A stretch of DNA of 64,000 nucleotides from an uncultured bacterium (GCA_964418185.1 CAYQKL010000001.1:64409-128408); one strand, 5' to 3'. Positions 21,113-54,001 are shown, numbered from the stretch's first letter. The notes: generated from the letters alone by a model not told the origin. Program-made: numbers and translations.

Positions 21113-21140
21113 TTGACTAAATACCTTATGTCATTATAAT
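21113..21140 (+). promoter_or_regulatory. sigma70 consensus promoter TTGACT-N16-TATAAT, 7 nt upstream of the tamB ATG (leaderless)
   Basis: Exact hexamers at 21113-21118 and 21135-21140; ATG at 21148. Confidence 0.5.
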
Positions 21141-21147
21141 ATCGCAT

Positions 21148-24100
21148 ATGAAAAAAATCTGGGTCTTTCCTGTTCTATTTGTACTGCTATTTATTGCAAT
21201 CTTTATTCTCGCAGGAACTCCACTATTCTTGAATTTTGCAAAGAATAAAATTGTATCCACAGCCCAATCCCAGGTTGGTCTACCAGTTAATATCGGCTCA
21301 TTAGAAGGAAATCTTTTTTATAATCTGAAAGTTCAAGATATAAAAATCGGCGATCTTGCCGAAATCAAATCAATCAATGTATCATACAATATATTATCCA
21401 TAATTTCCAGAAAAATAGAAATAAATTCACTGATCATAGATAGGATTTCATTGGATCTGGACAAAGCAAAGGCATTTGCACGCAATGTCACACCAAAAAA
21501 AACAGAAGAAAAAGAAAGGAGAATGCCACTTGAAATAACAATCAAAAAGATGGAGATCAATAATACGAATATCGCCAGTATAATAAATGAAAGAAATATT
21601 AGACTTCTCCTAAACATAAGGGGTGCATTAATAGACCAGACTTTTGCCATTGAACAACTGGACATCAAGACAGAAAAGTCTTATGTCATAATAAGAGGAA
21701 ATGTTCCACTAACCGAAGAAAATTCTTTCAATTTGAAATATTCATTGTTTTTGACGGTTGATGAAATAGGTATTGGACGATTAAAAGGAACGGTTCAAAG
21801 CACGGGCAATATTGAAGGAAAATTTTCAAACCCTGTGATTTCAAACAACACAGAGGTTTCCATAGACTATAGAAAAGAACAAATAAGAGGTCGTTTTCAA
21901 ATCAACTGGAAAATGCCATTTCTGGATAGTCTTGATATCAATGCAAATTTTTCAGTTCGGATGCCTGATCAGAAATTAGAACTGACATTGAAGAAGAAAT
22001 TCACGAATTTTTTTGCCGGTGTTATCTCAACCTATGGTGATATTCGTATCCCCGGCTCAATTAGTGGTTCATTTGAAGACCCGAGATTCAAAAGTCAGAT
22101 TCAGGGTGCATTAAAATTCGCCGGGTTCAAACCCAAAATCAATGGCGCTATGACCTATCATGGCAATACCCTGAATCTAAATATCAATCTGAGTGAAAAG
22201 AATTTTTCTGCCCGACTCAATGGAATACTGGATATTTTAAATTCCAAAATCATCAAAGGAGATATCGTAATAAGATGTCCTGAAATCAATCTGGTGAACA
22301 ATTTTTTGAAGGAACCAATGCCCGTTAGCGGTGCCCTGAATATGAGGGCAGAATTTGACGGCAGTTTAGATAATCCATATATCTCTAGTAAACTCACATT
22401 GCACAACGCCACTATATATAACGAAACAATCAACAAGGCGGATCTAAAATTTAGCCTCCAAAATGAATTTCTATATCTTGAAAATGGATTGATACAGAGT
22501 CCCCGTGGGCAGATCAATATCAGTGGAAATTACGGAACAAAAAATAGCAGTTTCAATTGCAGAATTTCCAGTGAGAATATAAGGTTTGAATCTCCTGAAG
22601 TTTTTGGTAATGATACAATTCCACTTAGCGGCAACATTGGATTAGATATCAATCTTTATGGTAATATATCTGATATCAATGGCTCGGGCAAGTTCTATCT
22701 TGCCAATGTTTTCTATGATAAATATAAATTTGATGATCAAAATCTTGAGTTTGAGATAAAACATAATATTGCAAATATTTGTTTATCAGATATTTCTGAA
22801 CATCTGCGACTCAATGCCTCGATTCAATTGGAAGAACCTTATCACTTTGATGCCCTGTTATCTTTAAAACATTTTGAATTTGCCCGCTATCTGGGATTAG
22901 AATCTGGATATATTTGTGGAAATATTTCAGCAAGTGGAGACATCGCCAGCCCCATCTTGAGCGAAGCGAACATTACTGTTGATACAATATCTGCAATAGC
23001 AGAAAAGAATGAAATCCATAATTCTGAACCTATATATATTGAAATACAAAATGGAATTGTTAGAATTCACAAAGCAAGCATCACAGTGCAAGACCATATA
23101 CTTTTGGTTCAAGGTCAGGTACCATTAGATAAAAGATTCGGCGATGTCAATCTAAAAATTCAAGGAGACCATATACAGATCGGCTCACTATACGCTATAT
23201 TTAGCAAGCATCAGGCACCTGGTGGATTTCTTGATGTGGCTATAGAGGTGAAAGGCGATTTGACTACCCCAAAGATAAGTGGACAGATAAATTTTGAAAA
23301 GGTGAGTTATGCACTGCCGGATATTCTGGTTGACTCGGTCTCAGGTTTGATCAAGTTTCAGAAAGACTATTTCAATATTGAATATATCAAAGGTAAGATC
23401 AATGATGGCACATTTGATATTACTGGCTTTATCAAACTTGATAAATCAGGGATTGATACAATTGCTATAAATTTAGTGATTACAAAAATTGACTATGCAA
23501 GCAAAGAATTTGGTTCGGTAATCTTGTCCAGTTCAGTCTGGTTTATTGCCAAAAAAGATTCTTACAAAATAAATGGGGAGTTAACAATTGACCAGGGAAT
23601 CTATGACCGACCATTTAACCTTCAAACAATCACTCAAATTTTGACGACTGCAAATCGTCCCAAAGAAGAGAACAAATTGCTCAAACAAATATACTGTAAT
23701 ATCGGTATAAATTCTCCAAATGGTATTAAGATTTCCAATAATATTGCAAATATTACTGTGGATCCAGATTTACAAATCAAAGGTTTGTTGTCCAGGATAA
23801 ATATCTATGGCACCGTAAAAACTTCATCACCCGGCGAAGTCAAATATCTGGGTAAAAGATTTGACATTATGAGGGCAATCATACAATTTGACAACCCCCA
23901 CCAGATAGACCCGGTTCTGGACCTTGAGGCAATGCATTCTGTATCATCAGTTGATGGCGATTATGAAATGACAATGGCGCTCACTGGAACAATTGGAAAA
24001 TGGTACCTAAAACTTTCTTCAGATCCACCTATTCCGGAACAGGATATAATAAGTCTACTATTAATTAACCGAAGAAGACCAGGGCTTTATCTTTATACTG

Positions 24101-24432
24101 AAGCAAAGGATATCAATCTCACTGGTCTGGCAAAAGATTATGCCCTTGGTTTAGCAAGGGGTACACTTGAAAGGACGGCTGAGAAATCACTGGGGTTTGA
24201 AAAATTCACAATTACGGGTGATCTACTTGAACCCAGACAATGGGATATTGGATTTGAAAAGAGAATTAACAAGAAGCTTACATTTATTTATGGCACAGGT
24301 ATAGAATCCTGGGAAGTGCGCAGGATTGGTATCAATTATGCGATCAATGATAATCTATCAATATTTACACTCCACGATCAGGAAAATATGAATTCAAGTG
24401 TGGACTTTGATTTAAACTTAAAGGTAAAATGA
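21148..24432 (+). CDS. tamB: TamB/AsmA-family translocation and assembly module protein (DUF490-like)
   Basis: 1094 aa; single N-terminal TM anchor then long beta-rich repetitive region; followed by an overlapping (ATGA) BamA/TamA-family gene. Confidence 0.65.
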   Translation: MKKIWVFPVLFVLLFIAIFILAGTPLFLNFAKNKIVSTAQSQVGLPVNIGSLEGNLFYNLKVQDIKIGDLAEIKSINVSYNILSIISRKIEINSLIIDRISLDLDKAKAFARNVTPKKTEEKERRMPLEITIKKMEINNTNIASIINERNIRLLLNIRGALIDQTFAIEQLDIKTEKSYVIIRGNVPLTEENSFNLKYSLFLTVDEIGIGRLKGTVQSTGNIEGKFSNPVISNNTEVSIDYRKEQIRGRFQINWKMPFLDSLDINANFSVRMPDQKLELTLKKKFTNFFAGVISTYGDIRIPGSISGSFEDPRFKSQIQGALKFAGFKPKINGAMTYHGNTLNLNINLSEKNFSARLNGILDILNSKIIKGDIVIRCPEINLVNNFLKEPMPVSGALNMRAEFDGSLDNPYISSKLTLHNATIYNETINKADLKFSLQNEFLYLENGLIQSPRGQINISGNYGTKNSSFNCRISSENIRFESPEVFGNDTIPLSGNIGLDINLYGNISDINGSGKFYLANVFYDKYKFDDQNLEFEIKHNIANICLSDISEHLRLNASIQLEEPYHFDALLSLKHFEFARYLGLESGYICGNISASGDIASPILSEANITVDTISAIAEKNEIHNSEPIYIEIQNGIVRIHKASITVQDHILLVQGQVPLDKRFGDVNLKIQGDHIQIGSLYAIFSKHQAPGGFLDVAIEVKGDLTTPKISGQINFEKVSYALPDILVDSVSGLIKFQKDYFNIEYIKGKINDGTFDITGFIKLDKSGIDTIAINLVITKIDYASKEFGSVILSSSVWFIAKKDSYKINGELTIDQGIYDRPFNLQTITQILTTANRPKEENKLLKQIYCNIGINSPNGIKISNNIANITVDPDLQIKGLLSRINIYGTVKTSSPGEVKYLGKRFDIMRAIIQFDNPHQIDPVLDLEAMHSVSSVDGDYEMTMALTGTIGKWYLKLSSDPPIPEQDIISLLLINRRRPGLYLYTEAKDINLTGLAKDYALGLARGTLERTAEKSLGFEKFTITGDLLEPRQWDIGFEKRINKKLTFIYGTGIESWEVRRIGINYAINDNLSIFTLHDQENMNSSVDFDLNLKVK

Positions 24433-25028: not shown

Positions 25029-25034
25029 CTTACC

Positions 25035-26153: not shown

Positions 26154-26206
26154 GCCTATGCTTTTCTATCTTTTTCTGAACCTATTGACGGTCTAAAGAA
26201 GATTTT

Positions 26207-26381: not shown

Positions 26382-26409
26382 TTGATAATTGCTGGTTGAT
26401 AAGTATAAT
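26382..26409 (+). promoter_or_regulatory. sigma70-like promoter TTGATA-N16-TATAAT, 5 nt upstream of the hypF ATG (leaderless)
   Basis: Hexamers at 26382-26387 and 26404-26409; ATG at 26415. Confidence 0.45.
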
Positions 26410-26414
26410 ACTCA

Positions 26415-28823
26415 ATGCCAAGAAATCAGATCCAGATAAAAGGGATTGTCCAGGGTGTGGGATTCAGACCATTTGTTTACCGACTGGCAAAAAGTCTGCA
26501 CCTTGCCGGCTTTGTAAGAAATACCTCCTCTGGCGTGGAGATTGAAATAGAGGGTGAAAACAACAAAATCAGAGAATTTTTGAAAAAACTCTGGCTTGAG
26601 AAACCAAGAGCGTCAATAATTGAAAGAATAACGGCCAAAAATATTCCCGCAAAGAAGGAAAATAATTTTTTCATCAAAGAAAGTAAACTTACCAAAGGCT
26701 TCACCCAGGTCTCTCCGGATATTGCAACCTGCGAGGATTGTCTCAAAGAGTTCTTCCAATTTAAAGACCGCAGATTCAGATTTCCTTTTATCAATTGCAC
26801 GAATTGCGGACCAAGATATTCAATAATCTACAATACACCCTATGACCGCAAACAGACCTCAATGAGGGAATTCAAGATGTGTCCTGAATGTAACAAAGAA
26901 TTTGAAGATGTTCATAACCGCAGGTTCCATGCCCAGCCTGATTGCTGTTTCTTATGTGGTCCTGAATTTTCTCTATACAAAATTGATGGCACAAAGATTA
27001 TAACCAATAATCCAGTTGATGAAGCCATAAAATTGCTCAAGAATGGTAAAATCATTGCCATTAAAGGTATTGGTGGATTCCATATTGCCTGCGATGCTAC
27101 AAATTGCCCGACGGTAAGAAGATTAAGAATTTTGAAAAATAGACCGACAAAGCCCTTTGCAATAATGACTGAAGAAAAATATTTAAACAGAATAGTCAGC
27201 ATAAATCCTGCGGAAAGGGATATATTGAAATCACCAATTGCACCAATTATGCTTTTGGAAAAGAAGAAAAGTGTAGTATGTGATGAAGTTGCTCCTAATA
27301 ATCCATACCTTGGTGTGATGCTACCCTATGCACCTGTCCATTATCTACTATTAGAGAGAATCCCCTATCTTGTGATGACCAGTGGCAATATTGTTGATGA
27401 GCCACTGGTAAAGGATGACGGAGAAGTCAGAACCAAATTGAAAAGGATGACTTCATTCTATTTTACCCATAATCGTGAAATCATAAATCGGTGCGATGAC
27501 TCAGTCGGGTTTTTTCTTAAAGGCCGCGGATTCTCAATCATCCGCCGTTCAAGAGGGTATGTGCCGGTGCCGATTGAATTGCCATTCAGTGTTCAACCTA
27601 CCCTTGCCGTCGGCCCATATCTAAAGAATACATTCACACTTGCGGAAAAAAAGAGTGCCTATGTCTCGCCCCATATTGGTGACCTGGATAATTTTGAAAC
27701 CCTGAATTTCTTTAATGAAATGGTTGAAAAATATAAGAGGTGGTTCAAGATTGAACCCGAATTGATCGTCCACGATTTGCACCCGGACTATCTTTCCACA
27801 AAGATTGCGTATCAATACTTTAATCGTGAACCGTTTAGCGTGAACCGAATAAACAAGATCAGCAAACGGTCAACGGTAAAGGGTAAACGAATTGTGGGGG
27901 TCCAGCACCACATTGCCCATATCATCTCCTGCCTCGCAGAGAATAAAATCTATGATAAAGCAATCGGCATTGCCTTTGATGGTACAGGATTTGGTCTTGA
28001 TGGAAATATCTGGGGTAGTGAGTTCTTTGTTGGCGATACAAAAGAGTTGAAACGGGTTGCCCATCTTGAATATCTACCCCTGCCTGGCGGTGAAGAGAGT
28101 ATAAAAAAACCTTATAGAATTGCAATTGCCTATCTTTTCAAACTCTTTGGTCCAATCCCCAGAATTTCCTCTCTTACTGCTCATTCAAAAGAAATCCAGG
28201 CAATCCAACAAATGATTGATAATAACTATAATCTTGCCTATACATCAAGTATGGGCAGGTTATTTGACTGCGTCTCAGCACTGCTTGGCATCACACAGGA
28301 GATAACCTATGAGGCAGAGGCAGCAATAAACTTAGAATATATTGCAGCAAAAAATATTAAAAACTTCTATTCATATAAAATTGTTGAAAGAGTAAAGGGA
28401 CATCTTTGTCATGCTGAACGAAGTGAAAAATCTAATATAGAAATGAAACCTGATGTAGCCTCACCCTTCAGGTCAGATGGTAAGAATGAAGCAGTGCATT
28501 TTATCCTTTGTATTTCAGAAATCCTGCAAGGCATAATCAACGATTTGAAAAAAGGGATTGGTAAAGATATTATTTCAGCAAAATTTCACAATACCGTGGT
28601 TCAATTCTCCCTTGACATCGCAAGGATGTTGCGTAAGATTTATGGCGTGGATAAGGTTGCTTTATCAGGCGGTGTCTTTCAGAACCGCTACTTATTGAAT
28701 TTGATGATAAGAAGGCTGGAAGATAACAACTTTGAAATATATACCCATCACAAACTGCCCACGAATGATGGCTGTATCTCGTATGGACAGGTGATTTATG
28801 GAAATATTGTATCCAAACTATAA
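26415..28823 (+). CDS. hypF: [NiFe]-hydrogenase maturation carbamoyltransferase HypF
   Basis: 802 aa. N-terminal acylphosphatase domain (GIVQGVGFRPFVYRLA), two Zn-finger CxxC pairs (CEDC...CTNCGPRYSII; CPEC...CFLCGPEFS), YrdC-like and Kae1-like domains. Confidence 0.85.
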   Translation: MPRNQIQIKGIVQGVGFRPFVYRLAKSLHLAGFVRNTSSGVEIEIEGENNKIREFLKKLWLEKPRASIIERITAKNIPAKKENNFFIKESKLTKGFTQVSPDIATCEDCLKEFFQFKDRRFRFPFINCTNCGPRYSIIYNTPYDRKQTSMREFKMCPECNKEFEDVHNRRFHAQPDCCFLCGPEFSLYKIDGTKIITNNPVDEAIKLLKNGKIIAIKGIGGFHIACDATNCPTVRRLRILKNRPTKPFAIMTEEKYLNRIVSINPAERDILKSPIAPIMLLEKKKSVVCDEVAPNNPYLGVMLPYAPVHYLLLERIPYLVMTSGNIVDEPLVKDDGEVRTKLKRMTSFYFTHNREIINRCDDSVGFFLKGRGFSIIRRSRGYVPVPIELPFSVQPTLAVGPYLKNTFTLAEKKSAYVSPHIGDLDNFETLNFFNEMVEKYKRWFKIEPELIVHDLHPDYLSTKIAYQYFNREPFSVNRINKISKRSTVKGKRIVGVQHHIAHIISCLAENKIYDKAIGIAFDGTGFGLDGNIWGSEFFVGDTKELKRVAHLEYLPLPGGEESIKKPYRIAIAYLFKLFGPIPRISSLTAHSKEIQAIQQMIDNNYNLAYTSSMGRLFDCVSALLGITQEITYEAEAAINLEYIAAKNIKNFYSYKIVERVKGHLCHAERSEKSNIEMKPDVASPFRSDGKNEAVHFILCISEILQGIINDLKKGIGKDIISAKFHNTVVQFSLDIARMLRKIYGVDKVALSGGVFQNRYLLNLMIRRLEDNNFEIYTHHKLPTNDGCISYGQVIYGNIVSKL

Positions 28824-29180: not shown

Positions 29181-30734
29181 TTACAACTTAATCAATTTGG
29201 CACATCCGATCAGCACCTCATCTGCTAACACTGCACAAAAGTATACGCCCTGGGAAACACTTTGCAGATCAGCACTTGCTATCCTCACAGATTGCGCTTG
29301 TACTGGATATGAATTCTTATGGATGATTTTACCGCAGGCATCATATATCACAACCTTTACCGTCGAAAGGATAGGACGATTTATCTTCAGTTCAATGGTA
29401 TTTGAGAAAAAAATCGGCCGGGCGGTAACACCGCCATTTGAAAGACTGTAGAACACGACATCATCCACTCCAAAAATTAGGTTACGGTAGATTTGCAATC
29501 CGGCACGGTGGCAAGCACACGCAATATAGTTGACGCCTAATGCCGCTAAACCAAAGGCATAATCGGGCGTCTGATAATGGCCCACTTCATATGGACTGTA
29601 AGGATTATTCACATTGATAACTCTCAAGCCACCGCTACCATCCGCCATATAACAATAGGAACCAACAACTGTTACATCACAAGTCCAACCTGAGGAACTT
29701 AGATTACCAACCAGCACAGGATTTGTTGGATTAGAAACATCAATTATGACTAATCCATTATTATCATCTGCAACATAGGCATAAGAACCAGTGACGAAAA
29801 CACTTCGGGCAGAACCCGCTGTATTATATGAACCAACTAATACCGGGTTTGCAGGATTATTGATGTTGATAATCTGCAATCCCTCAGAAAAATCGGCAAC
29901 ATAAGCGTACGAACCAGCAACAAATACTCCATATGAGTAACCAGGGGTATCATAATAACCGACCTCAACTGGATTAACAGGGTTTGCAATGTTTATCACC
30001 CGTAGTCCGTAGTAGTCGTCTGCCACGTATGCATAATTGCCAACAACATAAATCCCTCGTGCCCACCCTGGAGTAACCAACGAACCAGTTTCATAGGGGT
30101 TTGCTGGATTTGCCACATTAATTATTCTAATTCCGGATGGACCGTCAGCAACATAAGCATAAGAACCAACCACATCAATCTTGTAAGCCGTACCAGGCGT
30201 ATTACACGACCCGATCAATACAGGGTTGGCAGGATTACTGATATTAACAATTTGAATTCCGGCTCCTCCGTCAGCTATGTAAGCATAGGATCCTATAACC
30301 ACAACACCATAAGCGCGGTCCGAGGTATATAAGAAACCGATTCGTGAAGGTGAATTTACATTTGATAAGTTCCAGATTTCAAGACCCCCTAAACCGGTGG
30401 CGATGTAAAGAACTTGGTTAGTAGCAACATAAGACAAACCGCTTACCAGGCCACGCGTTTTAAATCGTGCTATTTCAATCGGATTATTCGGGTCGGTATC
30501 ATCAATTATTACTACACCACCGCCCGTAGAGGCGTACACATAATTACGTGCATTGTCGTGGACAATTGTTATAGCAGGTCCGTAGGGCCAATTGCCTATA
30601 AACCGCACATTCAGAGAATCAAAATCAGTAATTTGTGACTTAATGAAATTATCGCTCGACGAGGCTAACAACAAAATTGGCGTTATGCAGATCAACCAGA
30701 GCAAACAATATATCTGACTTCGTTTATTCATCAT
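29181..30734 (-). CDS. secreted LVIVD-repeat beta-propeller protein with T9SS C-terminal sorting domain
   Basis: Signal peptide. About eight ~42-aa repeats (GSYAYVAD..GL.IIN.SNPANPV.VG.Y.T.G). C-terminal ~80 aa Por/T9SS CTD pattern (TIELKI...VKVVIYDACGKII...GVYFCAV...KLIKL). Confidence 0.7.
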   Translation of the reverse strand: MMNKRSQIYCLLWLICITPILLLASSSDNFIKSQITDFDSLNVRFIGNWPYGPAITIVHDNARNYVYASTGGGVVIIDDTDPNNPIEIARFKTRGLVSGLSYVATNQVLYIATGLGGLEIWNLSNVNSPSRIGFLYTSDRAYGVVVIGSYAYIADGGAGIQIVNISNPANPVLIGSCNTPGTAYKIDVVGSYAYVADGPSGIRIINVANPANPYETGSLVTPGWARGIYVVGNYAYVADDYYGLRVINIANPVNPVEVGYYDTPGYSYGVFVAGSYAYVADFSEGLQIININNPANPVLVGSYNTAGSARSVFVTGSYAYVADDNNGLVIIDVSNPTNPVLVGNLSSSGWTCDVTVVGSYCYMADGSGGLRVINVNNPYSPYEVGHYQTPDYAFGLAALGVNYIACACHRAGLQIYRNLIFGVDDVVFYSLSNGGVTARPIFFSNTIELKINRPILSTVKVVIYDACGKIIHKNSYPVQAQSVRIASADLQSVSQGVYFCAVLADEVLIGCAKLIKL

Positions 30735-31095
30735 ATTTCCTCCTATTCTTTATTACATCATCATATCGCATATAGTATCAATTCATATTCATTTTTGGGA
30801 ATCTCAATGCTAAAGATACCCATAAGGTAATTTTTAGGCATGCCCGATAGGTCTTCAGTGACCCAATTCAAACATCATATTTTTTTGCTTACTACTTCTA
30901 TTCAGGTCCCTGAAAAGTCCGTTATTCTGATAACAGACACCAAACAGGAACACATGCCTGTCTTTCATAATTACAAAAGGTATTCTTTTATAGTAAATTA
31001 TATTCCGAATCTTAATGATGTCAAGACTTTTTTGCTGAAAATCTTTATAAAAAAACAACCTATTTGAGACAACTCCACTATGTTATATTTTCCAA

Positions 31096-33012: not shown

Positions 33013-33107
33013 AAATACCGTCCTTTTCTATTCTGAAAAGTAATCCATAATAATTATATGAAAGATTCGGAAAATGTCAAGAGAACTGGAAGGAATAACA
33101 AATCCCC

Positions 33108-33135
33108 TTGCATTGGTCGGAATTATTGATATAAT
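33108..33135 (+). promoter_or_regulatory. sigma70-like promoter TTGCAT-N16-TATAAT, 5 nt upstream of the polA GTG start
   Basis: Hexamers at 33108-33113 and 33130-33135; GTG at 33141. Confidence 0.4.
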
Positions 33136-33140
33136 CATCT

Positions 33141-35579
33141 GTGAAGAAATTTCTGCTTCTTGATGCCCATTCTTTGATATTTCGTGCCTATTTTGCATTT
33201 ATAAGAAACCCACTCAAAAATTCCAAAGGGCAGAACACTTCGGGGATCTTCGGTTTTTTGAATTCATTAAGAAAGATCAAGGCAAAATTTTCAAGCGACT
33301 ACATCGCACTGGCATTCGATGCTCCTGGTGAAACCTTTAGAGACCGGTTCTATAAAGAATATAAAGCAACCAGGCCACCTGCGCCAAAAGATATCCCATT
33401 CCAGATTGAAAAGGCAAAACAGATAAGTCAATTTATAGGAATTACTACTTATGAAATCTCCGGGTATGAGGCGGATGACATATTGGCGACCCTGGCAAAG
33501 AGATTGCAGGCTCATGGCGAAGTCTATATTATCAGTTCAGATAAAGACCTTATGCAACTCATTTCCGAAAATGTGTATGTCTACGATGTATTTAATGATA
33601 TAATCTATGATGTTGCGCAGGTCAAAGAGAAATTTGGTGTGGCACCGGAACGTATCGGTGATTATCTTGCACTCTGCGGTGATTCCATTGATAATGTCCC
33701 GGGTGTGCCAGGCATTGGTCCACGCCGGGCGATAGAAATTCTGAAAAAGTATCCTGACCTTGAGCAGGCACTTGTAAAAGAACCGAAACTTGCTGAATAT
33801 CGGGAAACATTGATACTATCAAAGAAACTTGTTGAACTTGAAACTGATGTTCCGATTGAAATTAACCTTGAAAACTTAATGACAAAACCCCCTGATGTTT
33901 ATAGTCTCCTTAAGGTGCTCTCGGAACTGGAATTCCATTCATTTATAAAGGAATTTGCCAAAAGGATTGATACTGCAGACATAACCAGAAAAGAAATAAT
34001 CAGCCCAGACGAAATAAAAGAGTACGCCGGAATTTTCATTGAGAGTGATAAGGTTTTCATAAGTTTTAGGGGAGAAGAAATCTATATTTCATCTGTGAAT
34101 GATACAATGAATATTATTTCTGATCCCAAGATTGTAAAAATTGGTTATGACCTGAAATCAGCAGTAAAATCTGCACCGATAAAATCACCCCTATTTGACA
34201 TAAAGATTGCAGCCTGGCTCATTGACCCCAACATAAAGAACGATCAGTTTGAAGATATCTGCCTTAAGTATTTAAACTGCTATTCTGAACCCGCACCTGA
34301 GACAGTAACAACTCTTTCCCTAAAACTTTATCCTCTACTAAGCCAGAAACTTGTGGAACTGGGCGAGATTGATCTATATAGAAAGATTGAAGAACCATTG
34401 ATATTTGTCCTCGCTAAAATGGAAGAAAGAGGTATTGGTATTGATCTTGATTTCTTAAGGGAACTCAAACACCGCATCGAAAAGGATATGACCCAACTTG
34501 TTGATGAATGCTACAGTATTGCTGGTAGTGTATTCAATATGAATTCACCCAAACAACTTGCCCAGATTCTTTTTGAAAGGCTCAAACTACCACCGGTAAA
34601 AAAGGGAAAATCCCATTACTCAACAGATTATGAGGTATTACAACAACTGAGCCACAAACATCCATTGCCAAAGAAGATCCTTGAATACCGTGAACTTGCG
34701 AAGGTGTTAGGGACATACATTGATCCGTTGATTGATTTTGCAAAAAATGGCCGGGTTCATACGACCTTTAATCAAACCGGTACTGCTACGGGCAGGCTAT
34801 CCTCAAACAACCCCAATATCCAGAATATTCCGATCCGTACATACCTTGGCAACGAATTAAGAAAAGGATTTGTTGCTCAAAAGGGATTTTTGCTTATTTC
34901 TGCCGACTATTCACAGATTGAATTAAGAATCCTTGCCCATATAACCAAAGACAGAAATCTCGTTGAGGCATTCAAATCCAGCCGTGACATTCATAATCAT
35001 ACTGCATCATTAATTTTTGAGATATCTGAAGATAATGTTGATGATACAAAGCGCAGAATTGCCAAGGTGGTAAATTATGGGTTGATCTATGGGATGACTG
35101 ATTATGGCCTTGCCCAGGAACTGGGGATTTCTCGCGAAGAAGCCGCACAATTCATTCAATCATACTACACACTCTATCCTGAAGTTGATAAATGGAGGCA
35201 ATCAGTAATCTCAGAGGTTGAACAAAAAGGTTATACCGAAACACTCTTTGGTAGAAAAAGACCTATTCCGGAGATAAATTCAGAAAACTACAATTTGAAG
35301 GAGTTTGGAAAGAGACTGGCAATCAACACACCAATCCAGGGTACGGCTGCCGATCTGATAAAATTATCAATGATTGAGGTAGAACATAGATTGACGATGG
35401 CACGATTTAAATCCGGACTGATACTGTCAATTCATGACGAATTACTATTTGAAATAGAAAAAGAAAGAATAGATGAAGCAAAGGCCATAATCAAGGAATC
35501 AATGGAACAAATCAGCAAATTTGAAGTTCCCATTTCAGTAAATATAAATGCCGGCGAAAACTGGGCAGAAGCACACTAA
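33141..35579 (+). CDS. polA: DNA polymerase I (5'-3' exonuclease plus polymerase domains)
   Basis: 812 aa. FEN-like N-terminus (LLLDAHSLIFRAYFA). Pol A motifs DYSQIELRILAH, KVVNYGLIYGM and HDELLFE. The 3'-5' exonuclease acidic motifs are not evident (Taq-like). Confidence 0.9.
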   Translation: MKKFLLLDAHSLIFRAYFAFIRNPLKNSKGQNTSGIFGFLNSLRKIKAKFSSDYIALAFDAPGETFRDRFYKEYKATRPPAPKDIPFQIEKAKQISQFIGITTYEISGYEADDILATLAKRLQAHGEVYIISSDKDLMQLISENVYVYDVFNDIIYDVAQVKEKFGVAPERIGDYLALCGDSIDNVPGVPGIGPRRAIEILKKYPDLEQALVKEPKLAEYRETLILSKKLVELETDVPIEINLENLMTKPPDVYSLLKVLSELEFHSFIKEFAKRIDTADITRKEIISPDEIKEYAGIFIESDKVFISFRGEEIYISSVNDTMNIISDPKIVKIGYDLKSAVKSAPIKSPLFDIKIAAWLIDPNIKNDQFEDICLKYLNCYSEPAPETVTTLSLKLYPLLSQKLVELGEIDLYRKIEEPLIFVLAKMEERGIGIDLDFLRELKHRIEKDMTQLVDECYSIAGSVFNMNSPKQLAQILFERLKLPPVKKGKSHYSTDYEVLQQLSHKHPLPKKILEYRELAKVLGTYIDPLIDFAKNGRVHTTFNQTGTATGRLSSNNPNIQNIPIRTYLGNELRKGFVAQKGFLLISADYSQIELRILAHITKDRNLVEAFKSSRDIHNHTASLIFEISEDNVDDTKRRIAKVVNYGLIYGMTDYGLAQELGISREEAAQFIQSYYTLYPEVDKWRQSVISEVEQKGYTETLFGRKRPIPEINSENYNLKEFGKRLAINTPIQGTAADLIKLSMIEVEHRLTMARFKSGLILSIHDELLFEIEKERIDEAKAIIKESMEQISKFEVPISVNINAGENWAEAH

Positions 35580-35623
35580 TTTTTACCCATTGATTATTTC
35601 CTATTTTTGAATATAATCTATCT

Positions 35624-35824
35624 GTGATTACCAGAAAATCTAAAGTAGAAGATATTTTAAGAGATTTTCCAGAGAAATCAGGCATTTTTGTGCAAATGGG
35701 CCTCCCCTGCCTTGTTTGCGGCGAACCGTTCTGGGGAACAGTTGAGGAACTATGCCTGAGATATAATGTTGAACCTGAAAAACTATTGAAAAGATTAAAC
35801 GAAGACGAAGGAGTAAGAATATGA
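35624..35824 (+). CDS. DUF1858-like small redox/disulfide domain protein (ScdA/RIC N-terminal-domain family)
   Basis: 66 aa with a single CxxC (GLPCLVCGEP); resembles hybrid-cluster-protein-associated DUF1858; ATGA overlap with the next gene. Confidence 0.5.
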   Translation: MITRKSKVEDILRDFPEKSGIFVQMGLPCLVCGEPFWGTVEELCLRYNVEPEKLLKRLNEDEGVRI

Positions 35825-43368: not shown

Positions 43369-44622
43369 TCAAGATTTTATGTTTTTTTTTCTGTATTCTT
43401 TGAGCGCGATACCAAGTATCTTTATGGCATTTCTAATATCTTCTTCTTTAAGCACATAAGCAACTCTGATCTGATTTCTGCCCTTTTTCAATGTAGAATA
43501 AAATCCATTGGCAGGCGCAAGCATTACAGTGCTATTTTGATAACTAAAATCGGTCAGAAGCCACTGACAGAAATGGTCAGCGTCCTTCACAGGCAGACTG
43601 AGGACCGTATAAAATGCACCTTCAGGTTTGTGCCCATAAACATCAGGGATCTCCTTTAGACAATCAAATAGCACATTGCGGCGGTGTTCATATTCTTTGA
43701 TCATTGGGATAACATATTTATCTATACATTTATAAGCCGAAATTGCACCGATCTGTTCCAAGGTCGGAGGGCACAATCGTGCCTGGCAGAATCTTATCAG
43801 TACATCCATCACCTTCTTATTACGACTGATAATACAACCAACCCGGGCACCACAGGCTGAAAACCTCTTTGATATAGAATCCATCAGTATCACGCGATCT
43901 TCAATTTCTGGTAGCGATAAGGCGCTGATGTGTTCTTTGCCATCATAGATAAACTCACGGTAGACCTCGTCAGAGAGTATAAAAAGATTATGTTTTTTAC
44001 TCAAACGCTGAAGGATGAACATCTCCTCTTCGGTGAGCACTGTTCCTGTTGGATTGTTTGGTGTGTTGATTAGAATCGCCCGGGTACGAGTGGTTATCTT
44101 CTTTCCAATCTCTGATTCAGATGGAAGATGAAAACCATTTTCAATCTTTGTTTCTATCGCAACAAGTTTTATATTAGCCATTACAGAAAACCCGTTGTAA
44201 TTTGTATAATAAGGTTCAAAAATTATTATTTCATCTTTTGGGTCGCAAACCGTCATCATCGCGAAGATAATTGCTTCACTACCACCAATTGTAATCCAGA
44301 TATTATCAAGGTCCAGGTCAAACCCAAGGGTCCGATAGTAATTAAGAATTGCAAGCCGTAGATCAAGCATTCCCCCCGAAGGTCCGTAACCCAACACCTT
44401 TTCGCGGTAATTTGCAATGGATTCAAATATCTCTGGTGGAGTCTCAATATCAGGTTGACCAATATTAAGGTGATAGACCTTTATTCCTCTTTTCTTTGCC
44501 TCATCAGCAAAGGATGACAATTTCCTGATAGGTGAATAGGGCATATGGTCTGCCCTTTGTGAAAGTATGCGTTCTTTAATTTGTTTTTTTACCATACAGA
44601 AATTATATCCAGAAGATTTCAA
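43369..44622 (-). CDS. class I/II pyridoxal-phosphate aminotransferase (aspartate/aromatic or LL-DAP type)
   Basis: 417 aa; NIGQPDIETP and SKRFSACGARVG (PLP lysine) motifs. Confidence 0.65.
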   Translation of the reverse strand: MKSSGYNFCMVKKQIKERILSQRADHMPYSPIRKLSSFADEAKKRGIKVYHLNIGQPDIETPPEIFESIANYREKVLGYGPSGGMLDLRLAILNYYRTLGFDLDLDNIWITIGGSEAIIFAMMTVCDPKDEIIIFEPYYTNYNGFSVMANIKLVAIETKIENGFHLPSESEIGKKITTRTRAILINTPNNPTGTVLTEEEMFILQRLSKKHNLFILSDEVYREFIYDGKEHISALSLPEIEDRVILMDSISKRFSACGARVGCIISRNKKVMDVLIRFCQARLCPPTLEQIGAISAYKCIDKYVIPMIKEYEHRRNVLFDCLKEIPDVYGHKPEGAFYTVLSLPVKDADHFCQWLLTDFSYQNSTVMLAPANGFYSTLKKGRNQIRVAYVLKEEDIRNAIKILGIALKEYRKKNIKS

Positions 44623-44673
44623 AAGTCAATCATTGTGGGATGAGTGTTCTGCCCTAACAACCTAATCAAGCCG

Positions 44674-44701
44674 TTGACATTGGATAGAATTTCCATATAA
44701 T
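44674..44701 (+). promoter_or_regulatory. sigma70 consensus promoter TTGACA-N16-TATAAT upstream of the PAS-GGDEF gene
   Basis: Exact hexamers at 44674-44679 and 44696-44701; 21-nt leader without SD before the ATG at 44723. Confidence 0.5.
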
Positions 44702-44722
44702 TAAAATGGGCTTGAAAAACCA

Positions 44723-46081
44723 ATGAAGCATACAAAATTTAGGAGAATTTCAAAGGCAAAATTGCTTGAGGAAGTAGCCATCTTGAAAGCCCGGGTAAAA
44801 GACTTACAGAAAACCCTGGTTTGGTACAAGGCAATAAATAAGGCAGTCTTTGAACACTCACCCGTGGGGATCACTGTGAGATTAGGGTCAGGCGAGCTTA
44901 TTTCATTCAATAAAGCCTGGAAAAAAATCTGGAATTTAACATACCGAAAAATCATTGAAAACGAAGAAAAATGTAGAAATTGGAATGTTCGCCAGCGATA
45001 TCCTTTTCTAAAAGATGCCATACCAAAGGTTCAACGAGTTTTTGACAGAGGTGGTGAGGTATTTTTACCCGAAATTCATGTAGTAAATCCGCAAACAAAG
45101 TTTGACAAATTGATTTCCCAGCATTACTATGCGATAAAAAACAATCAGAACAAAGTTGAACATGTCGTAACCATTACCCAGGACATTAGCGAACAAAAAC
45201 GCGTTCTCACGGCACTCCAGGAAAGTGAGGAGAAGTTCAGAACTATCGTAAACAATGTCAATCTTGGGGTCTATCGTTCTACGGCTGAATCACCTGGTTA
45301 TTTTGTCCAGGTTAATCCTGCATTTGTAAAGATGTTTGGCTATAAATCAACAAAACAGGTTTTGAAGATACCGGTGGAGAAAGTTTATAAGAACCCAGAG
45401 GACCGTAGGAAATTTATCAGAGATCTTCTGACAAAAGGAGAGGTGACTGACCGAGAACTGCTATTGAACAGAAGTGATGGTTCTATATTCTGGGCTTCAA
45501 TATATGCCAAGGCACACTTTGATGAGAGTGGTAAACTTCAGTGGATTGACGGTGTGATTGAAGACATTACTGAACGCAAGAAAACAACCGAAATGCTCCA
45601 CGCCCTTTCATTCACGGATGAACTCACTGGACTATACAACCGCCGAGGATTTTTTGCTTTGGCTGAACACCAGGTGAAAATTGCAAATCGGACAGAAAAA
45701 TCTATGTTGTTACTCTTCGTAGATATGGACAACCTCAAGGATATCAATGATGAGTATGGCCATCAAATGGGTGACGAGGCACTCATCCAGACCACGAAAA
45801 TTCTAAAGAAGACCTTCCGCGGATCTGATATTATTGCTCGAATCGGTGGCGACGAATTTGTGATTCTGACCATTGAAATGCAGAAGACAAAAGGAGAAAT
45901 CTTCTGCGAACGTCTGCAAAAAAGTGTGAATATTTTTAACCGAACTAAAAAATTACCTTTCGGTATTGCATTAAGTGTAGGATGGTCATATTATGAACCC
46001 AAAAAACCTAAATCTATTGCGTTACTTTTGAGGCAAGCCGACCGAATGATGTATTTGCACAAAAAAAAGAAAACGATTTAA
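44723..46081 (+). CDS. PAS-domain diguanylate cyclase (GGDEF) with intact I-site
   Basis: 452 aa; two PAS-like regions; RGSDIIARIGGDEF (RxxD I-site plus GGDEF active site). Confidence 0.8.
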   Translation: MKHTKFRRISKAKLLEEVAILKARVKDLQKTLVWYKAINKAVFEHSPVGITVRLGSGELISFNKAWKKIWNLTYRKIIENEEKCRNWNVRQRYPFLKDAIPKVQRVFDRGGEVFLPEIHVVNPQTKFDKLISQHYYAIKNNQNKVEHVVTITQDISEQKRVLTALQESEEKFRTIVNNVNLGVYRSTAESPGYFVQVNPAFVKMFGYKSTKQVLKIPVEKVYKNPEDRRKFIRDLLTKGEVTDRELLLNRSDGSIFWASIYAKAHFDESGKLQWIDGVIEDITERKKTTEMLHALSFTDELTGLYNRRGFFALAEHQVKIANRTEKSMLLLFVDMDNLKDINDEYGHQMGDEALIQTTKILKKTFRGSDIIARIGGDEFVILTIEMQKTKGEIFCERLQKSVNIFNRTKKLPFGIALSVGWSYYEPKKPKSIALLLRQADRMMYLHKKKKTI

Positions 46082-48330: not shown

Positions 48331-48382
48331 ATTTTATCGCATTATGATATCATAAGGCACGAGTTTAGAACAACGGTTGTTA

Positions 48383-48410
48383 TTGACTTATCAATAGGAA
48401 TCAATATAAT
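48383..48410 (+). promoter_or_regulatory. sigma70 consensus promoter TTGACT-N16-TATAAT, 5 nt upstream of the epimerase ATG (leaderless)
   Basis: Hexamers at 48383-48388 and 48405-48410; ATG at 48416. Confidence 0.5.
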
Positions 48411-48415
48411 TTGCT

Positions 48416-49348
48416 ATGAATATTCTTGTTACCGGTGGTGCGGGTTTTATTGGTTCCCATATTGTTGATGCCTATATAAATGAAGGACATAGTGTAGTAA
48501 TAATCGATGACCTTTCAACTGGTGATATCAAAAATATAAATCCCGGGGCTGAATTCATAAAACAAGATATTTCCAAATCCGAAATAGAAACGATCTTCAA
48601 AGAATTTCGATTTGAAATAGTAAACCATCATGCGGCACAGATAAATGTACGCCGTTCTCTCGAAGATCCATTATTTGATGCACAGGTAAATATCATTGGT
48701 TCCTTAAATCTTCTCAACCTTTCAGCAAAATATAGAATTAAGAAATTTATCTTTTCTTCAAGTGGTGGTGCAATCTATGGCGAACCGAAGACCTATCCCA
48801 TTACCGAAGATTTTCAACCAGAACCGCTTTCGCCGTACGGTGTCGCTAAACTTGCCGTAGAACATTATATCAAAGTATTCGCAAAGTTATACAATTTTCA
48901 GTATGTCATTCTGCGCTACAGTAATGTCTATGGACCTAGACAGATTTCCAAGAGCGAAGCCGGGGTCATATCAATCTTCATTAACCAAATTCTTGAGAGC
49001 AAAGAATGTTTTGTAAACGGTGATGGCGAACAGATTCGTGATTATGTCTATGTTGGTGATGTAGTAAGGGCAAATCTTCTGGCATTAAATGCCCATTCAG
49101 ATTATTTTAACATCGGCACCGGTATTGAGACCAGCGTTAATAGATTGCTTGAGGTGTTGGAGAGAATATTAAAGAAAAAGATACCCCACCAGCATCGTGC
49201 ACCAATACCCGGTGAGGTGCTCAAGAATGTTTTGGATTATTCAAAGGCAAGAAAAGTGTTATGCTGGTCTCCAGAGGTTCTCTTAGAAAAAGGTATTGAA
49301 TTGACATATAAATACTTTTTTAATGAAAAACAAAACAAAGTATCTTAA
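48416..49348 (+). CDS. NAD-dependent epimerase/dehydratase (UDP-glucose 4-epimerase-like SDR)
   Basis: VTGGAGFIGSH Rossmann motif and the YxxxK of extended SDRs. Confidence 0.8.
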   Translation: MNILVTGGAGFIGSHIVDAYINEGHSVVIIDDLSTGDIKNINPGAEFIKQDISKSEIETIFKEFRFEIVNHHAAQINVRRSLEDPLFDAQVNIIGSLNLLNLSAKYRIKKFIFSSSGGAIYGEPKTYPITEDFQPEPLSPYGVAKLAVEHYIKVFAKLYNFQYVILRYSNVYGPRQISKSEAGVISIFINQILESKECFVNGDGEQIRDYVYVGDVVRANLLALNAHSDYFNIGTGIETSVNRLLEVLERILKKKIPHQHRAPIPGEVLKNVLDYSKARKVLCWSPEVLLEKGIELTYKYFFNEKQNKVS

Positions 49349-50213: not shown

Positions 50214-52021
50214 AATTTCTTAACCCCAATTATCTTTTTGGGCTCATTCTTATCGCTGTTCCTATTATCATCCATCTCATCTTCAGAAAAAAATTACAAA
50301 AATTTCCTTTTTCTTCCCTGATGTTTTTGAAAAGTGCTGAGGCTTCCAGATTGAGATGGTTGAGATTGAAAGAAATCCTGATTCTGCTTATGAGGTGCTT
50401 ATTTGTCGCCTCGCTCTTCCTTGCCCTTGCCCGCCCCCAGTATCAGGGTAGAATATTCAGGGGCAGTCGTCTTGCTGCTGTCTATTTGGTTATTGACAAT
50501 TCATTAAGTATGAACTATGGCAAAAACTTTAAAGCGGCACTCGATCAGGCAGAAAAGATTATCACCGCCTATTCATCCAAGAGTATGTTTTATGTTATTC
50601 CCCTATGTGTCCAAAATGATTACAAACCTTTCTGGAGTAATAGAATCTCTGCACTCAATAGGATAAAAGAAATACGGTTGTCAAATTCCACTGGTTCAAT
50701 AAAGGATCTATACGAGAAATTTGCCCGGGAAAAGACTGAACTACCAGCTGAATTTGTGTATATTGGGGACGGTCAGACAATCAATTTTCGCGGTCTTGAA
50801 ACAGTGAATAATTTCTACTGGATAAAAATACCTCTGGGTAGCAATGTTGCCATTGAATACGTTGAATTAAAAAATCCTTATTCAATCCCCACAGACAATT
50901 ATGAAATGAAGGTGAAAATAAAAAATTATTCAGGTGGCTCTTATCAAGGTAAGGTTCAAGTTATTGCTGGCAGTCTTTTTCAACAGAAGGAATATAACAT
51001 ACCACCAATGCAAGACCTGATAACCGTCTTCTCCTTACCAGTTAACATTCAAAACGGTGTAGTGAAGATTGACAATGACAGTCTACCAGTTGACAATCAA
51101 TATTACTTTTCAAAATCTCTTCTATTTAGAATAAATGTGCTGGTTGTTGGCAATGGGAAATATATAAAACTTGTCTTGTCCCCTTCAACCACAATTAAAA
51201 CGCCATTCAAAATTGAACATACTACAGATTTGAAAAAAGTAAACCTTGGTCCACATCAAATCATTTTGCTCAACGGTATTGAAGAAATCACAGAATTTGA
51301 AAGACTGAAATTGCTTAATTTTCTCACGCAATCACGAAACGGTTTGATAATCTGTCTGGGACCGAAAACCGGACCCCAATTGAAGAACTTTCTAACTGAC
51401 TGTGGCGATATTAAAGGTTTGGTCAATATAGATGGCTATCTAAACATCAAATGGTATGATACAGATTATCCACCATTCTATGTTTTCCAGGACAACCCCG
51501 GATTGAAGACTATCAAGTTCTTCAGGTTATGTCAGATGATCCCGCGTGGACGGGTTCTGGCACTACTAAATAATGATATGCCATTAATCATCAATCATAA
51601 CAACCTTACAGTCCTCACAACAGAATTGAATGAAAGTAGTACAGATCTCATTTACAACCCGAACTTTGTACCGCTATTACATTCACTCATTTATGGATTG
51701 ACGAACAAACATATTGATAATGAATTCAGAATTGGAGATAGGGTTTTACGACCTGATTTGATCCGAGATCCAGATGGCGAAATCTTGTCTGATAGTATTC
51801 TCTCAAAAATAGGATTTTATACCGTTAGCAAGGAAACACTTGCGGTTAATATCGACCCGGTTGAAAGCAATCCTGCCACCATAACGCCACAGATGGCAGA
51901 CAATCTGGGGATAAAGACAATAACCATTGAATCATTGAAGGGACCAGCCGATATGAGCACCTCTTTTCTGATCATTGCCCTCTGTGCCTTTGTCTGTGAA
52001 CTGCTCTTTTTGTTATTATAG
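50210..52021 (+). CDS. BatA-like membrane protein: N-terminal double-TM domain (TIGR02226-like) plus vWA domain
   Basis: MKFLNPNYLFGLILIAVPIIIHL N-terminal signature; MIDAS-like VIDNSLSM; C-terminal TM. Confidence 0.6.
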   Translation: MKFLNPNYLFGLILIAVPIIIHLIFRKKLQKFPFSSLMFLKSAEASRLRWLRLKEILILLMRCLFVASLFLALARPQYQGRIFRGSRLAAVYLVIDNSLSMNYGKNFKAALDQAEKIITAYSSKSMFYVIPLCVQNDYKPFWSNRISALNRIKEIRLSNSTGSIKDLYEKFAREKTELPAEFVYIGDGQTINFRGLETVNNFYWIKIPLGSNVAIEYVELKNPYSIPTDNYEMKVKIKNYSGGSYQGKVQVIAGSLFQQKEYNIPPMQDLITVFSLPVNIQNGVVKIDNDSLPVDNQYYFSKSLLFRINVLVVGNGKYIKLVLSPSTTIKTPFKIEHTTDLKKVNLGPHQIILLNGIEEITEFERLKLLNFLTQSRNGLIICLGPKTGPQLKNFLTDCGDIKGLVNIDGYLNIKWYDTDYPPFYVFQDNPGLKTIKFFRLCQMIPRGRVLALLNNDMPLIINHNNLTVLTTELNESSTDLIYNPNFVPLLHSLIYGLTNKHIDNEFRIGDRVLRPDLIRDPDGEILSDSILSKIGFYTVSKETLAVNIDPVESNPATITPQMADNLGIKTITIESLKGPADMSTSFLIIALCAFVCELLFLLL

Positions 52022-52022
52022 A

Positions 52023-52937
52023 TTAATAAACCAGCACCTTAAGACGCTGAGGGCTGATGTGCACAGGAGTCATAAATTCGGGCAGGACAATTTCAGGTGG
52101 AAGAAAATACTCACCGTTAACAAGGTCTGTAGTTTTTATACAGGCACTAATATCTTCTCTTTTTAAATCGTTAAGCCGGCTACGGGCACCCAGGATAATA
52201 ACCGTATCTATCTCCTGAACTGAGACCCAGGTTCTCTGCCCTGAATTCCTTACTACACTTAATGAGACATTCGTGAATACCTTTTGCGCCGATGAATCTA
52301 TCAATACCCTGACACTCACATTTTCTGAAGAAAATCTTACCAGCCCGGATACCGGCTCAAATTTCAAGTTTCTTTCAAATGTTGCTGACTGATTCTTTAT
52401 ATCTAACGATTCAACATTTACTTCATTCAACTTCTGCAGGATTTTTCTCGGTCCTGTTACCAAAATTGTATCGAGCAGTTCAATCGCAGCAATAGAAAAT
52501 CCGCCCTTCAGAACACCCTTGAGTGGAATTGATGGCTTCGCGGGTTTGGTAATCTTTTCATCAACCTCAACATTAACAAATCTTAACCCATAGTCTATCG
52601 AAACATCCTTCACGGGTATAACAAAATCCTTTGTAGAAATGACATTCTTACCCGGAACCACCTCAGAAAGGTTACATTCTGCCACTGGTGGTTTTATCCA
52701 GATTCCAAATAAGAACCTTCCTTTTCCATTGAAAGAAACCCTCAATTTCGGAATAGAATCTGTGACGATATATGTATCAGGTAGATTTCTGTAATTAATT
52801 GATATCTCGCGCTCATAACTATATATTCCATCAATTGCCACAAAAAGCCACAGCCCAAATGCGAGTATCAATGATAGGATCTTGCGCGCCGGCTCTACTG
52901 TAAAAAATCTTACAAATAATTTCAGGATTTTAAGCAT
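52023..52937 (-). CDS. YbbR-like domain protein (CdaR-like)
   Basis: N-terminal TM plus repeated YbbR-like beta-rich segments; assignment by pattern only. Confidence 0.4.
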   Translation of the reverse strand: MLKILKLFVRFFTVEPARKILSLILAFGLWLFVAIDGIYSYEREISINYRNLPDTYIVTDSIPKLRVSFNGKGRFLFGIWIKPPVAECNLSEVVPGKNVISTKDFVIPVKDVSIDYGLRFVNVEVDEKITKPAKPSIPLKGVLKGGFSIAAIELLDTILVTGPRKILQKLNEVNVESLDIKNQSATFERNLKFEPVSGLVRFSSENVSVRVLIDSSAQKVFTNVSLSVVRNSGQRTWVSVQEIDTVIILGARSRLNDLKREDISACIKTTDLVNGEYFLPPEIVLPEFMTPVHISPQRLKVLVY

Positions 52938-53827
52938 AGAAATACCATTATGCCCTTCTGTATGTGCAGACGGTTTTCTGCCTGGTCATAGACAATTGAA
53001 TGTGAACCATCAATCACCTCATCAGTAATCTCCTCACCCCGGTGTGCGGGCAGACAGTGCATCACAATATAATCATCTTTTCTCACATTTTTCAGAAGTT
53101 TGCTGTTCAACTGAAAGGATTTGAAAATTTCTTTCCGTTGTTCTGCCTCTGCCTCCTGGCCCATTGAAGCCCAGACATCCGTATAGATAACATCTGCCCC
53201 TATAACTGCATCTATCGGATTACTGGTCCACCTTGCATTCGCTGCCTTTTTTAAGTAATCTTTGTTTGGCTCATAACCGTCCGGTGTTGCAATATTCAAT
53301 TTGAAACCGAGCAATGTTGATGCAGCAACGAAAGAATTGCATACATTATTGCCATCACCAATATAGGTTAAGGTCACTTTATCCAGACTACCCTTTTTCT
53401 CAATGACCGTAAAAAGGTCACAGAGTATCTGACAGGGATGTTCAAGATCACACAGGCCATTTATCACTGGAACACTGGCATTTTCAGCCAGTTCTCTAAT
53501 ATGTTTGTGACTGAATACCCTGGCCATAATTATATCTACCCACCGGGACAGATTCTTTGCCACATCTTTTACTGCCTCTCTTTTTCCAAGTTGAATATCC
53601 GTCGGCGCAAGGTATATGGCATGACCGCCAAGCTGAGTCATCCCGGTCTCAAAAGTTACCCTTGTCCTCAATGATGGTTTTTCAAAGATCATTGCCAGAG
53701 TCTTATCCTTCAAAATCTTGTGTTCAATGCCCTTTTTCTGCTTATCTTTTAACTCTCGGGTAATATCAAAGATCTTATATATTTCTTCCCGACTCAGGTC
53801 AAAGATTGAAGTTAAATCTCTTTTCAT
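52922..53827 (-). CDS. argF: ornithine carbamoyltransferase
   Basis: SLRTRVTFE (STRTR motif) and HCLPAHRGEE (HCLP motif). Confidence 0.8.
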   Translation of the reverse strand: MKRDLTSIFDLSREEIYKIFDITRELKDKQKKGIEHKILKDKTLAMIFEKPSLRTRVTFETGMTQLGGHAIYLAPTDIQLGKREAVKDVAKNLSRWVDIIMARVFSHKHIRELAENASVPVINGLCDLEHPCQILCDLFTVIEKKGSLDKVTLTYIGDGNNVCNSFVAASTLLGFKLNIATPDGYEPNKDYLKKAANARWTSNPIDAVIGADVIYTDVWASMGQEAEAEQRKEIFKSFQLNSKLLKNVRKDDYIVMHCLPAHRGEEITDEVIDGSHSIVYDQAENRLHIQKGIMVFLCLKS

Positions 53828-53967
53828 AATTTCTACTCCTATTTTCTTAATTATATAAAATTCTCCAGAAAAATCAATATTCGCTTAGTACAGGATACAT
53901 CTTTTTTATTTCTTTCCGGGGTAATTTACCCAACATTTTGGACTCTACTTAACTCTGCTACGACCCA

Positions 53968-53995
53968 TTGACAAAACAAAAAAATGCTTTATAAT
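53968..53995 (+). promoter_or_regulatory. sigma70 consensus promoter TTGACA-N16-TATAAT, 6 nt upstream of the thrS ATG (leaderless)
   Basis: Exact hexamers at 53968-53973 and 53990-53995; ATG at 54002. Confidence 0.5.
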
Positions 53996-54001
53996 TGACC
54001 T

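Follow-up and report, generated by a model that had tools for sequence, protein, structure and literature searches.

Near-consensus promoters adjoining start codons and predicted leaderless mRNAs in a candidate division WOR-3 bacterium

Promoters beside start codons in the window

The stretch analyzed here, called the window throughout, comprises 64,000 nt from an uncultured bacterium (GCA_964418185.1, CAYQKL010000001.1:64409-128408). Among its genes are tamB, hypF, polA, a gene for a galE-like NAD-dependent epimerase, and thrS, which is followed by infC and rpmI. For these five genes the original prediction had described near-consensus sigma-70 promoters whose −10 hexamer ends 5–7 nt before the start codon, and had proposed that the transcripts are leaderless, that is, without a 5′ untranslated region (5′ UTR). 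Both strands of the window were searched with the pattern TTG-N19-TATAAT, which corresponds to a 16-nt spacer. Every coordinate of the five promoters was read as previously given, and two further leaderless candidates were found, an aminotransferase gene on the minus strand and a 66-aa DUF1858 open reading frame (ORF) (Table 1). In the aminotransferase gene an in-frame TTG (44622) falls within the promoter, and the mechanical ORF list begins the gene at that TTG. The TGA of the DUF1858 ORF overlaps the ATG (35821) of a NUDIX/PanD gene.

The pattern is present 12 times in the window, against 1.46 ± 1.12 times in dinucleotide shuffles, and none of 100 shuffles reached 12. This count against shuffled controls, which had been suggested for the whole genome, was made on the 64-kb window. 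The version with a 17-nt spacer remained at chance (2 sites, with 1.36 expected), and TATAAT by itself was barely and not significantly enriched (77 sites, with 63 expected). All of the 12 sites lie upstream of genes and are oriented toward them. Seven of them are followed, 5–7 nt after the −10, by the start codon of an ORF with 60 aa or more; since 2.6% of all positions have such a start 5–7 nt downstream, the binomial probability of 7/12 is 6e-9. When the −35 TTG was lacking, only 2 of 65 TATAAT hexamers had the start of such an ORF at this distance.

The other five promoters precede genes with leaders, four of them with a Shine-Dalgarno sequence (SD) and one, the PAS-GGDEF gene, without it. 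No SD was found before the seven leaderless candidate starts, whereas AGGAGG, AGGAG or GGAGG stands 4–8 nt ahead of many other genes of the window, and downstream cistrons have either SD sites or overlapping stop and start codons. The two modes of initiation thus coexist in the window, as originally proposed. The SDs claimed before the BNR, pheT and rny genes are present, the sequence being AGGAGG before the BNR gene, AGGAG before pheT and GGGAGG before rny.

Table 1. Promoters, genes and other features of the window. Distances run from the end of the −10 to the start codon; domain matches are to Pfam.
Feature	Position	Strand	Elements	Distance and start codon	Domain match or remark
tamB promoter	21113..21150	+	TTGACT 21113-18, N16, TATAAT 21135-40	7 nt, ATG 21148	
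tamB gene	21148-24432	+			DUF748, residues 2-143, profile positions 15-165; TamB domain, residues 748-1092
hypF promoter	26382..26417	+	TTGATA 26382-87, N16, TATAAT 26404-09	5 nt, ATG 26415	
hypF gene	26415-28823	+			Acylphosphatase, residues 5-85, profile positions 2-83
polA promoter	33108..33143	+	TTGCAT 33108-13, N16, TATAAT 33130-35	5 nt, GTG 33141	
polA gene	33141-35579	+			5_3_exonuc_N, residues 3-166, profile positions 1-164 of 164
DUF1858 ORF (66 aa) with promoter, added candidate	35590..35824	+	TTGATT-N16-TATAAT 35590-35617	6 nt, GTG 35624	DUF1858, residues 2-55, profile positions 1-59, E 1e-6, below Pfam cut-off
Aminotransferase promoter, added candidate	44593..44629	−	TTGACT 44629-24, TATAAT 44607-02	6 nt, ATG 44595	
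Aminotransferase gene	43369-44595	−			Aminotran_1_2, residues 40-393
Epimerase promoter	48383..48418	+	TTGACT 48383-88, N16, TATAAT 48405-10	5 nt, ATG 48416	
Epimerase gene	48416-49348	+			Epimerase, residues 3-234, profile positions 1-240
thrS promoter	53968..54004	+	TTGACA 53968-73, N16, TATAAT 53990-95	6 nt, ATG 54002	
thrS gene	54002-55900	+			
LVIVD-repeat protein promoter	30997..31024	−	AGGAGG SD	262 nt, ATG 30734	
LVIVD-repeat protein gene	29181-30734	−			
TPR-PEGA protein promoter	33053..33080	−	weak AGGA SD	40 nt, ATG 33012	divergent from polA promoter
PAS-GGDEF gene promoter	44674..44701	+	no SD	21 nt, ATG 44723	short leader
OTCase-fold carbamoyltransferase promoter	53850..53877	−	AGGAG SD	22 nt, ATG 53827	divergent from thrS promoter
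rplT promoter	56676..56703	+	AGGAG SD	70 nt, ATG 56774	
Six-codon ORF MGLKNQ*	44706-44726	+			TGA overlaps ATG 44723
Stretch without credible ORFs	20372-21147				776 nt
Hairpin	about 20497-20560				within the 776-nt stretch
Promoter-like site	from 20706	−	TTGACA-N16-TATACT	307 nt upstream of his gene start	
6S RNA	61047-61200	+			Rfam RF00013, 79.6 bits, full length
Palindrome	62906-62976				

Some of the leadered genes showed features of their own. The TPR-PEGA promoter is kept in the related locus L090. The LVIVD-repeat protein carries a C-terminal sorting domain of the type IX secretion system, its gene is not rny, and no Rfam match was found in its 262-nt leader. A consensus promoter of its own, downstream of rpmI, was observed for rplT in the window (56676-56773, counted with the leader) and in loci L082, L083 and L087. 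In its leader of about 65–70 nt a ‘gatttcaggc’ box is conserved and a short hairpin may form; the leader gave no Rfam match and may be an L20 autoregulatory one. In the window and in L082 alike, about 15 nt of leader, with no SD, precede the PAS-GGDEF gene. A six-codon ORF begins 4 nt after the −10 of this promoter; it was considered as a leaderless upstream ORF coupled to the GGDEF gene, and this candidate was dropped, as the ORF is not conserved in L082 and is probably incidental.

The promoter-to-start layout in the WOR-3 lineage

Relatives of ThrS and HypF with 81–83% identity and below are named candidate division WOR-3, a phylum with the current NCBI name Caldifarciminota, and by these protein matches the organism of the window is a WOR-3 bacterium. 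The layout from promoter to start codon is kept in relatives for all seven genes, while spacers, discriminators and upstream neighbors vary. For thrS, TTGACA-N16-TATAAT-N5/6-ATG was found in seven relatives, among them L082, L083, L085, L086 (the complete genome CP070686.1), L087 and L092, with ThrS identities from 98% down to 68%. Outside the hexamers these loci have diverged in the spacer, the discriminator and the more distal upstream sequence, and thrS has other upstream neighbors in them. The contig L092 had also been considered as transcript-derived, marking a 5′ end, and was set aside, since it includes 70 nt upstream of the ATG together with the promoter and is uninformative on the transcription start site (TSS).

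The other genes behaved in the same way. The weak −35 of polA (TTGC[A/C]T), its 5-nt gap and its GTG start are all kept in L088 (72% identity), the one locus obtained by a metagenome scan with PolA, and in L090. The hypF layout is kept in L089 (81%) and L090 (71%); in L091 this gene follows hypA-hypB within an operon, and the promoter is absent. The 7-nt gap of tamB is kept in L090, where the DUF1858 orthologue is also called with the same promoter and GTG start. Both the epimerase layout, with a diverged spacer, and the aminotransferase layout were found in L082.

Additionally, ten WOR-3 loci were pooled, amounting to 260 kb (the 64-kb window and about 200 kb). The number of TTG-Nx-TATAAT sites was 7, 12 and 7 for spacers of 13, 14 and 15 nt, 69 for 16 nt, and 14, 6, 9 and 2 for 17, 18, 19 and 20 nt. 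At the −35 positions that the search had left free, A was present in 62, C in 48 and A or T in 66 of the 69 spacer-16 sites, so that TTGAC(A/T) was recovered. Both this recovered consensus and the strict 16-nt spacing mark the motif as a genuine promoter of the sigma-70 type, specific to the lineage. A T is found 4 nt upstream of TATAAT in 50 of the 69 promoters, and none of them has a TG extended −10. The modal spacer of Escherichia coli sigma-70 promoters is 17 nt, in contrast to the 16 nt of WOR-3; the fixed spacer and the T 4 nt upstream constitute a promoter geometry specific to this lineage.

Distances from these 69 sites to the next start codon, counting ORFs of 60 aa or more, show a bimodal distribution. 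Gaps of 5, 6 and 7 nt account for 17, 15 and 3 sites, respectively, in all 35 of 69 (51%), and the remaining sites mostly lie 16–372 nt ahead of the start codon. The set also includes genes outside the leaderless candidates of the window, namely those for a zinc alcohol dehydrogenase, a radical-SAM protein, EamA and an acylphosphatase. Of 36 start codons tallied, 29 are ATG, 6 are GTG and one is TTG, so that 35 of 36 have a purine as first base, and T is the base preceding the start codon in 22 of 36.

As a control, 80 thrS loci from other phyla were analyzed (1.3 Mb, of which 385 kb with GC <45%), with ThrS identities of at most 56% among the matches listed. The spacer histogram of these loci was flat, with 8–18 sites per spacing, and none of the 17 spacer-16 sites in the 1.3 Mb had a start codon at 5–7 nt. 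The start-adjacent promoter pattern was likewise absent from the 385 kb of low-GC control loci.

Predicted leaderless transcripts and their alternatives

The sigma-70 holoenzyme starts transcription about 6–8 nt past the −10 hexamer and, in selecting the TSS, favors a purine (+1) preceded by a pyrimidine (−1). A gap of 5–7 nt therefore places the expected +1 on the first base (A or G) of the start codon, and the T before a purine-initial start codon fits the same preference. The explanation that we consider very likely is that WOR-3 housekeeping promoters follow a rigid TTGAC(A/T)-N16-TATAAT rule and that, at about half of them, 5–7 nt separate the −10 from the start codon of the leading gene in the transcription unit. 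Transcription would then begin on the A or G of that codon and yield a 5′-pppAUG or 5′-pppGUG mRNA with neither 5′ UTR nor SD, and ribosome and initiator tRNA would bind the 5′-terminal start codon directly, which is leaderless initiation. Downstream cistrons and other transcription units would use AGGAGG-type SDs or the coupling of overlapping stop and start codons. The leaderless transcripts that had been predicted are supported by the computed tests, namely the promoter motif, the correct starts, the kept 5–7 nt gap and the lack of SD; what we infer from these is where exactly transcription starts and how the ribosome is recruited. Moreover, over their first 40 nt the putative leaderless mRNAs are slightly less structured than other genes (median −2.9 vs −4.0 kcal/mol, P 0.02), a weak comparison given that the orthologues are not independent.

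Several observations weigh against this explanation. The −35 of polA (TTGCAT) fits the consensus at three of six positions and fails a generic promoter scanner. The pooled counts represent ten loci, not a whole genome, and include orthologous promoters repeatedly, which are not independent. No intrinsic terminator was found between the promoter of hypF or of the epimerase gene and the upstream gene on the same strand, so read-through transcripts are possible, in which these cistrons would lack an SD. A leader of 1–3 nt, or additional TSSs upstream, is also possible at the predicted leaderless genes.

The −35 TTGAC(A/T) stands at exactly 16 nt in every case, and the identical full motif is also found 20–260 nt ahead of genes with an SD. 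Both facts speak against an unlikely alternative, in which the genes are expressed mainly from longer upstream transcripts and the start-adjacent TATAAT serves not as the −10 in use but as an SD-independent translation signal such as an S1-binding AU-rich element. In the FCB group, AT-rich signals other than SD are the norm (Lomsadze et al., 2018, PMC6028130), and the missing terminators would agree with upstream transcripts for hypF and the epimerase gene. By contrast, the genes upstream of thrS, polA, the aminotransferase gene and tamB are divergent, so that there is no same-strand gene to feed these four, and no other same-strand promoter-like site was found in the 100–174-nt intergenic regions of thrS, polA and the aminotransferase gene. 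In addition, TATAAT without a −35 is not associated with start codons, and the motif is absent where hypF is internal to an operon (L091).

A second alternative is that the promoters are real and translation begins at a downstream in-frame codon, the apparent first 14–19 codons being ordinary short leaders. It derives from public annotation: in the calls made on the identical sequence, thrS begins at the GTG of codon 20 (P0002, 613 aa) and hypF at the GTG of codon 15 (P0121, 788 aa), which makes them 19 and 14 codons shorter. We regard this as very improbable. The start of P0121 interrupts the acylphosphatase domain within its conserved catalytic VQGVGFR loop, and ThrS is called at its full length of 632 aa in most relatives. 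Since the Pfam domains align from the first residues (1–5), the true starts of PolA, the epimerase, HypF, TamB and the DUF1858 protein cannot, by these alignments, lie further downstream. The N-terminal residues are also kept as protein across relatives while their codons change. On the other side, the starts of tamB, hypF, polA, the epimerase gene and thrS are the first ATG, GTG or TTG after an in-frame stop, with no in-frame start further upstream. An exact search with the full-length ThrS of the window gave no match, because the public gene call lacks its N-terminus. The shortened calls of thrS and hypF are the error expected of an SD-based gene caller on a leaderless gene, and leaderless starts in the WOR-3 lineage appear to be systematically mis-called.

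Chance matches in AT-rich intergenic DNA are a scarcely credible explanation: the genome has 39% GC and TATAAT alone is not significantly enriched, but the excess over the shuffles (12 vs 1.46, reached by 0/100) is limited to spacer 16, the sites are kept at orthologous positions, and the low-GC loci of other phyla lack the pattern.

In other bacteria thrS is regulated through its leader, by an operator in E. coli and by a T-box in Firmicutes, and the original prediction had singled it out as remarkable for lacking such a long regulatory leader. That view was borne out. The 6 nt between the −10 and the ATG leave no room for a structured leader of more than 100 nt, and neither a T-box nor any other Rfam leader was detected near thrS at the gathering threshold or at E values up to 0.5. 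The 174-nt intergenic region contains two back-to-back promoters and nothing else. To judge from these layouts, leader control of the E. coli or Firmicutes type is excluded here and across the lineage. As in those bacteria, thrS heads a conserved thrS-infC-rpmI-rplT-pheST cluster, but theirs is leader-regulated, whereas the WOR-3 gene is predicted to have no leader; any control would have to be exerted at the promoter or inside the coding sequence.

A permissive Rfam scan of the window for T-box, L20 and his leaders returned only a 6S RNA, which is the only real match, and chance microRNA-like matches to a palindrome. The 6S RNA lies between zapA (end 61044) and rny, and the same zapA-ssrS neighborhood is found in E. 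coli. The start given for rny in the ORF list (61188) overlaps the 6S RNA, and the gene probably starts at the ATG near 61254, after GGGAGG. A long near-perfect palindrome about 100 nt downstream of rny, with weak microRNA-like Rfam matches on both strands, is probably a bidirectional terminator hairpin. Upstream of tamB, a gap of 776 nt without credible ORFs separates this gene from a hisG-like gene; it contains a long hairpin and a near-consensus promoter on the minus strand, and showed neither an Rfam match nor similarity to the relatives that were fetched. This gap may harbor a small RNA or serve as a his-operon leader.

Comparison with known leaderless systems

Leaderless expression is well described in other phyla, and the WOR-3 case is an instance of the known pattern of a −10 box next to an ORF. 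The closest counterpart is group C of GeneMarkS-2, in which the Pribnow box precedes the start codon of an operon's first gene by about 6–8 nt, about 25–50% of operons are leaderless, and SDs serve internal and leadered genes; such genomes are common among Actinobacteria and in Deinococcus-Thermus (Lomsadze et al., 2018, PMC6028130). Leaderless genes of this kind have also been described as ‘TA-led’ (Zheng et al., 2011, PMC3160421). WOR-3 resembles group C in the −10 situated 5–7 nt before the start at seven genes of the window and at 35 of 69 lineage promoters, in leaderless candidates without SD alongside other genes with it, and in an affected share of at least 25%, here 7/12 in the window and 35/69 in a limited sample of 260 kb. 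There are also differences. Code-11 genomes of group C are reported to be almost entirely high-GC (bioRxiv 10.1101/2022.07.25.500264), whereas WOR-3 is uncultured and has 38–48% GC. Furthermore, the −10 of group C is TANNNT, in contrast to WOR-3, where a full TATAAT is combined with a strong −35 and a constant 16-nt spacer.

In Deinococcus-Thermus, a ‘−10 region adjacent to ORFs’ was shown experimentally to drive leaderless mRNAs (Zhong et al., 2025, PMC12340547), and such mRNAs were also reported earlier (de Groot et al., 2014, as cited in PMC6028130). The likeness to WOR-3 consists of a −10 directly upstream of ORFs, lineage-wide and at orthologous genes. The difference lies in the evidence, since that system was validated by reporters, RNA-seq and differential RNA-seq, while the WOR-3 one is predicted from sequence and comparison. 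A third parallel is found in mycobacteria, where GUG besides AUG reportedly serves as a 5′-terminal start codon; the polA and DUF1858 genes of WOR-3, with GTG kept in relatives, are comparable in this respect. In both cases leaderless genes, predicted ones in WOR-3, make up a large fraction of the transcription units (for mycobacterial leaderless transcripts, Cortes et al., 2013 and Shell et al., 2015, as cited in PMC6028130). Mycobacterial promoters have no well-conserved −35 and the genomes are high-GC, and WOR-3 differs on both counts.

No paper joining WOR-3 or Caldifarciminota with leaderless or Shine-Dalgarno initiation was found in the searchable literature. What is new here is the lineage, its low GC, and the rigid near-consensus promoter with a 16-nt spacer. 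WOR-3/Caldifarciminota is probably a previously unrecognized leaderless-rich phylum, a low-GC one with code 11, in which the rigid TTGACW-N16-TATAAT promoter would express core genes without a 5′ UTR, among them the thrS-infC-rpmI operon, and polA from a 5′-terminal GUG.

If this is true, leaderless initiation would rank among the major modes of initiation well beyond Actinobacteria and Deinococcota, and gene starts in WOR-3 metagenome-assembled genomes would be systematically mis-called. Because the public calls shorten thrS by 19 and hypF by 14 codons, start prediction for these genomes should use a promoter-aware (group C) model. The rigid rule would also make transcription units predictable directly from sequence in the WOR-3 lineage, and with a leaderless thrS a different control of threonyl-tRNA synthetase expression is to be expected. 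An uncultured low-GC phylum of this kind would also bear on whether leaderless initiation is ancestral or has been repeatedly derived.

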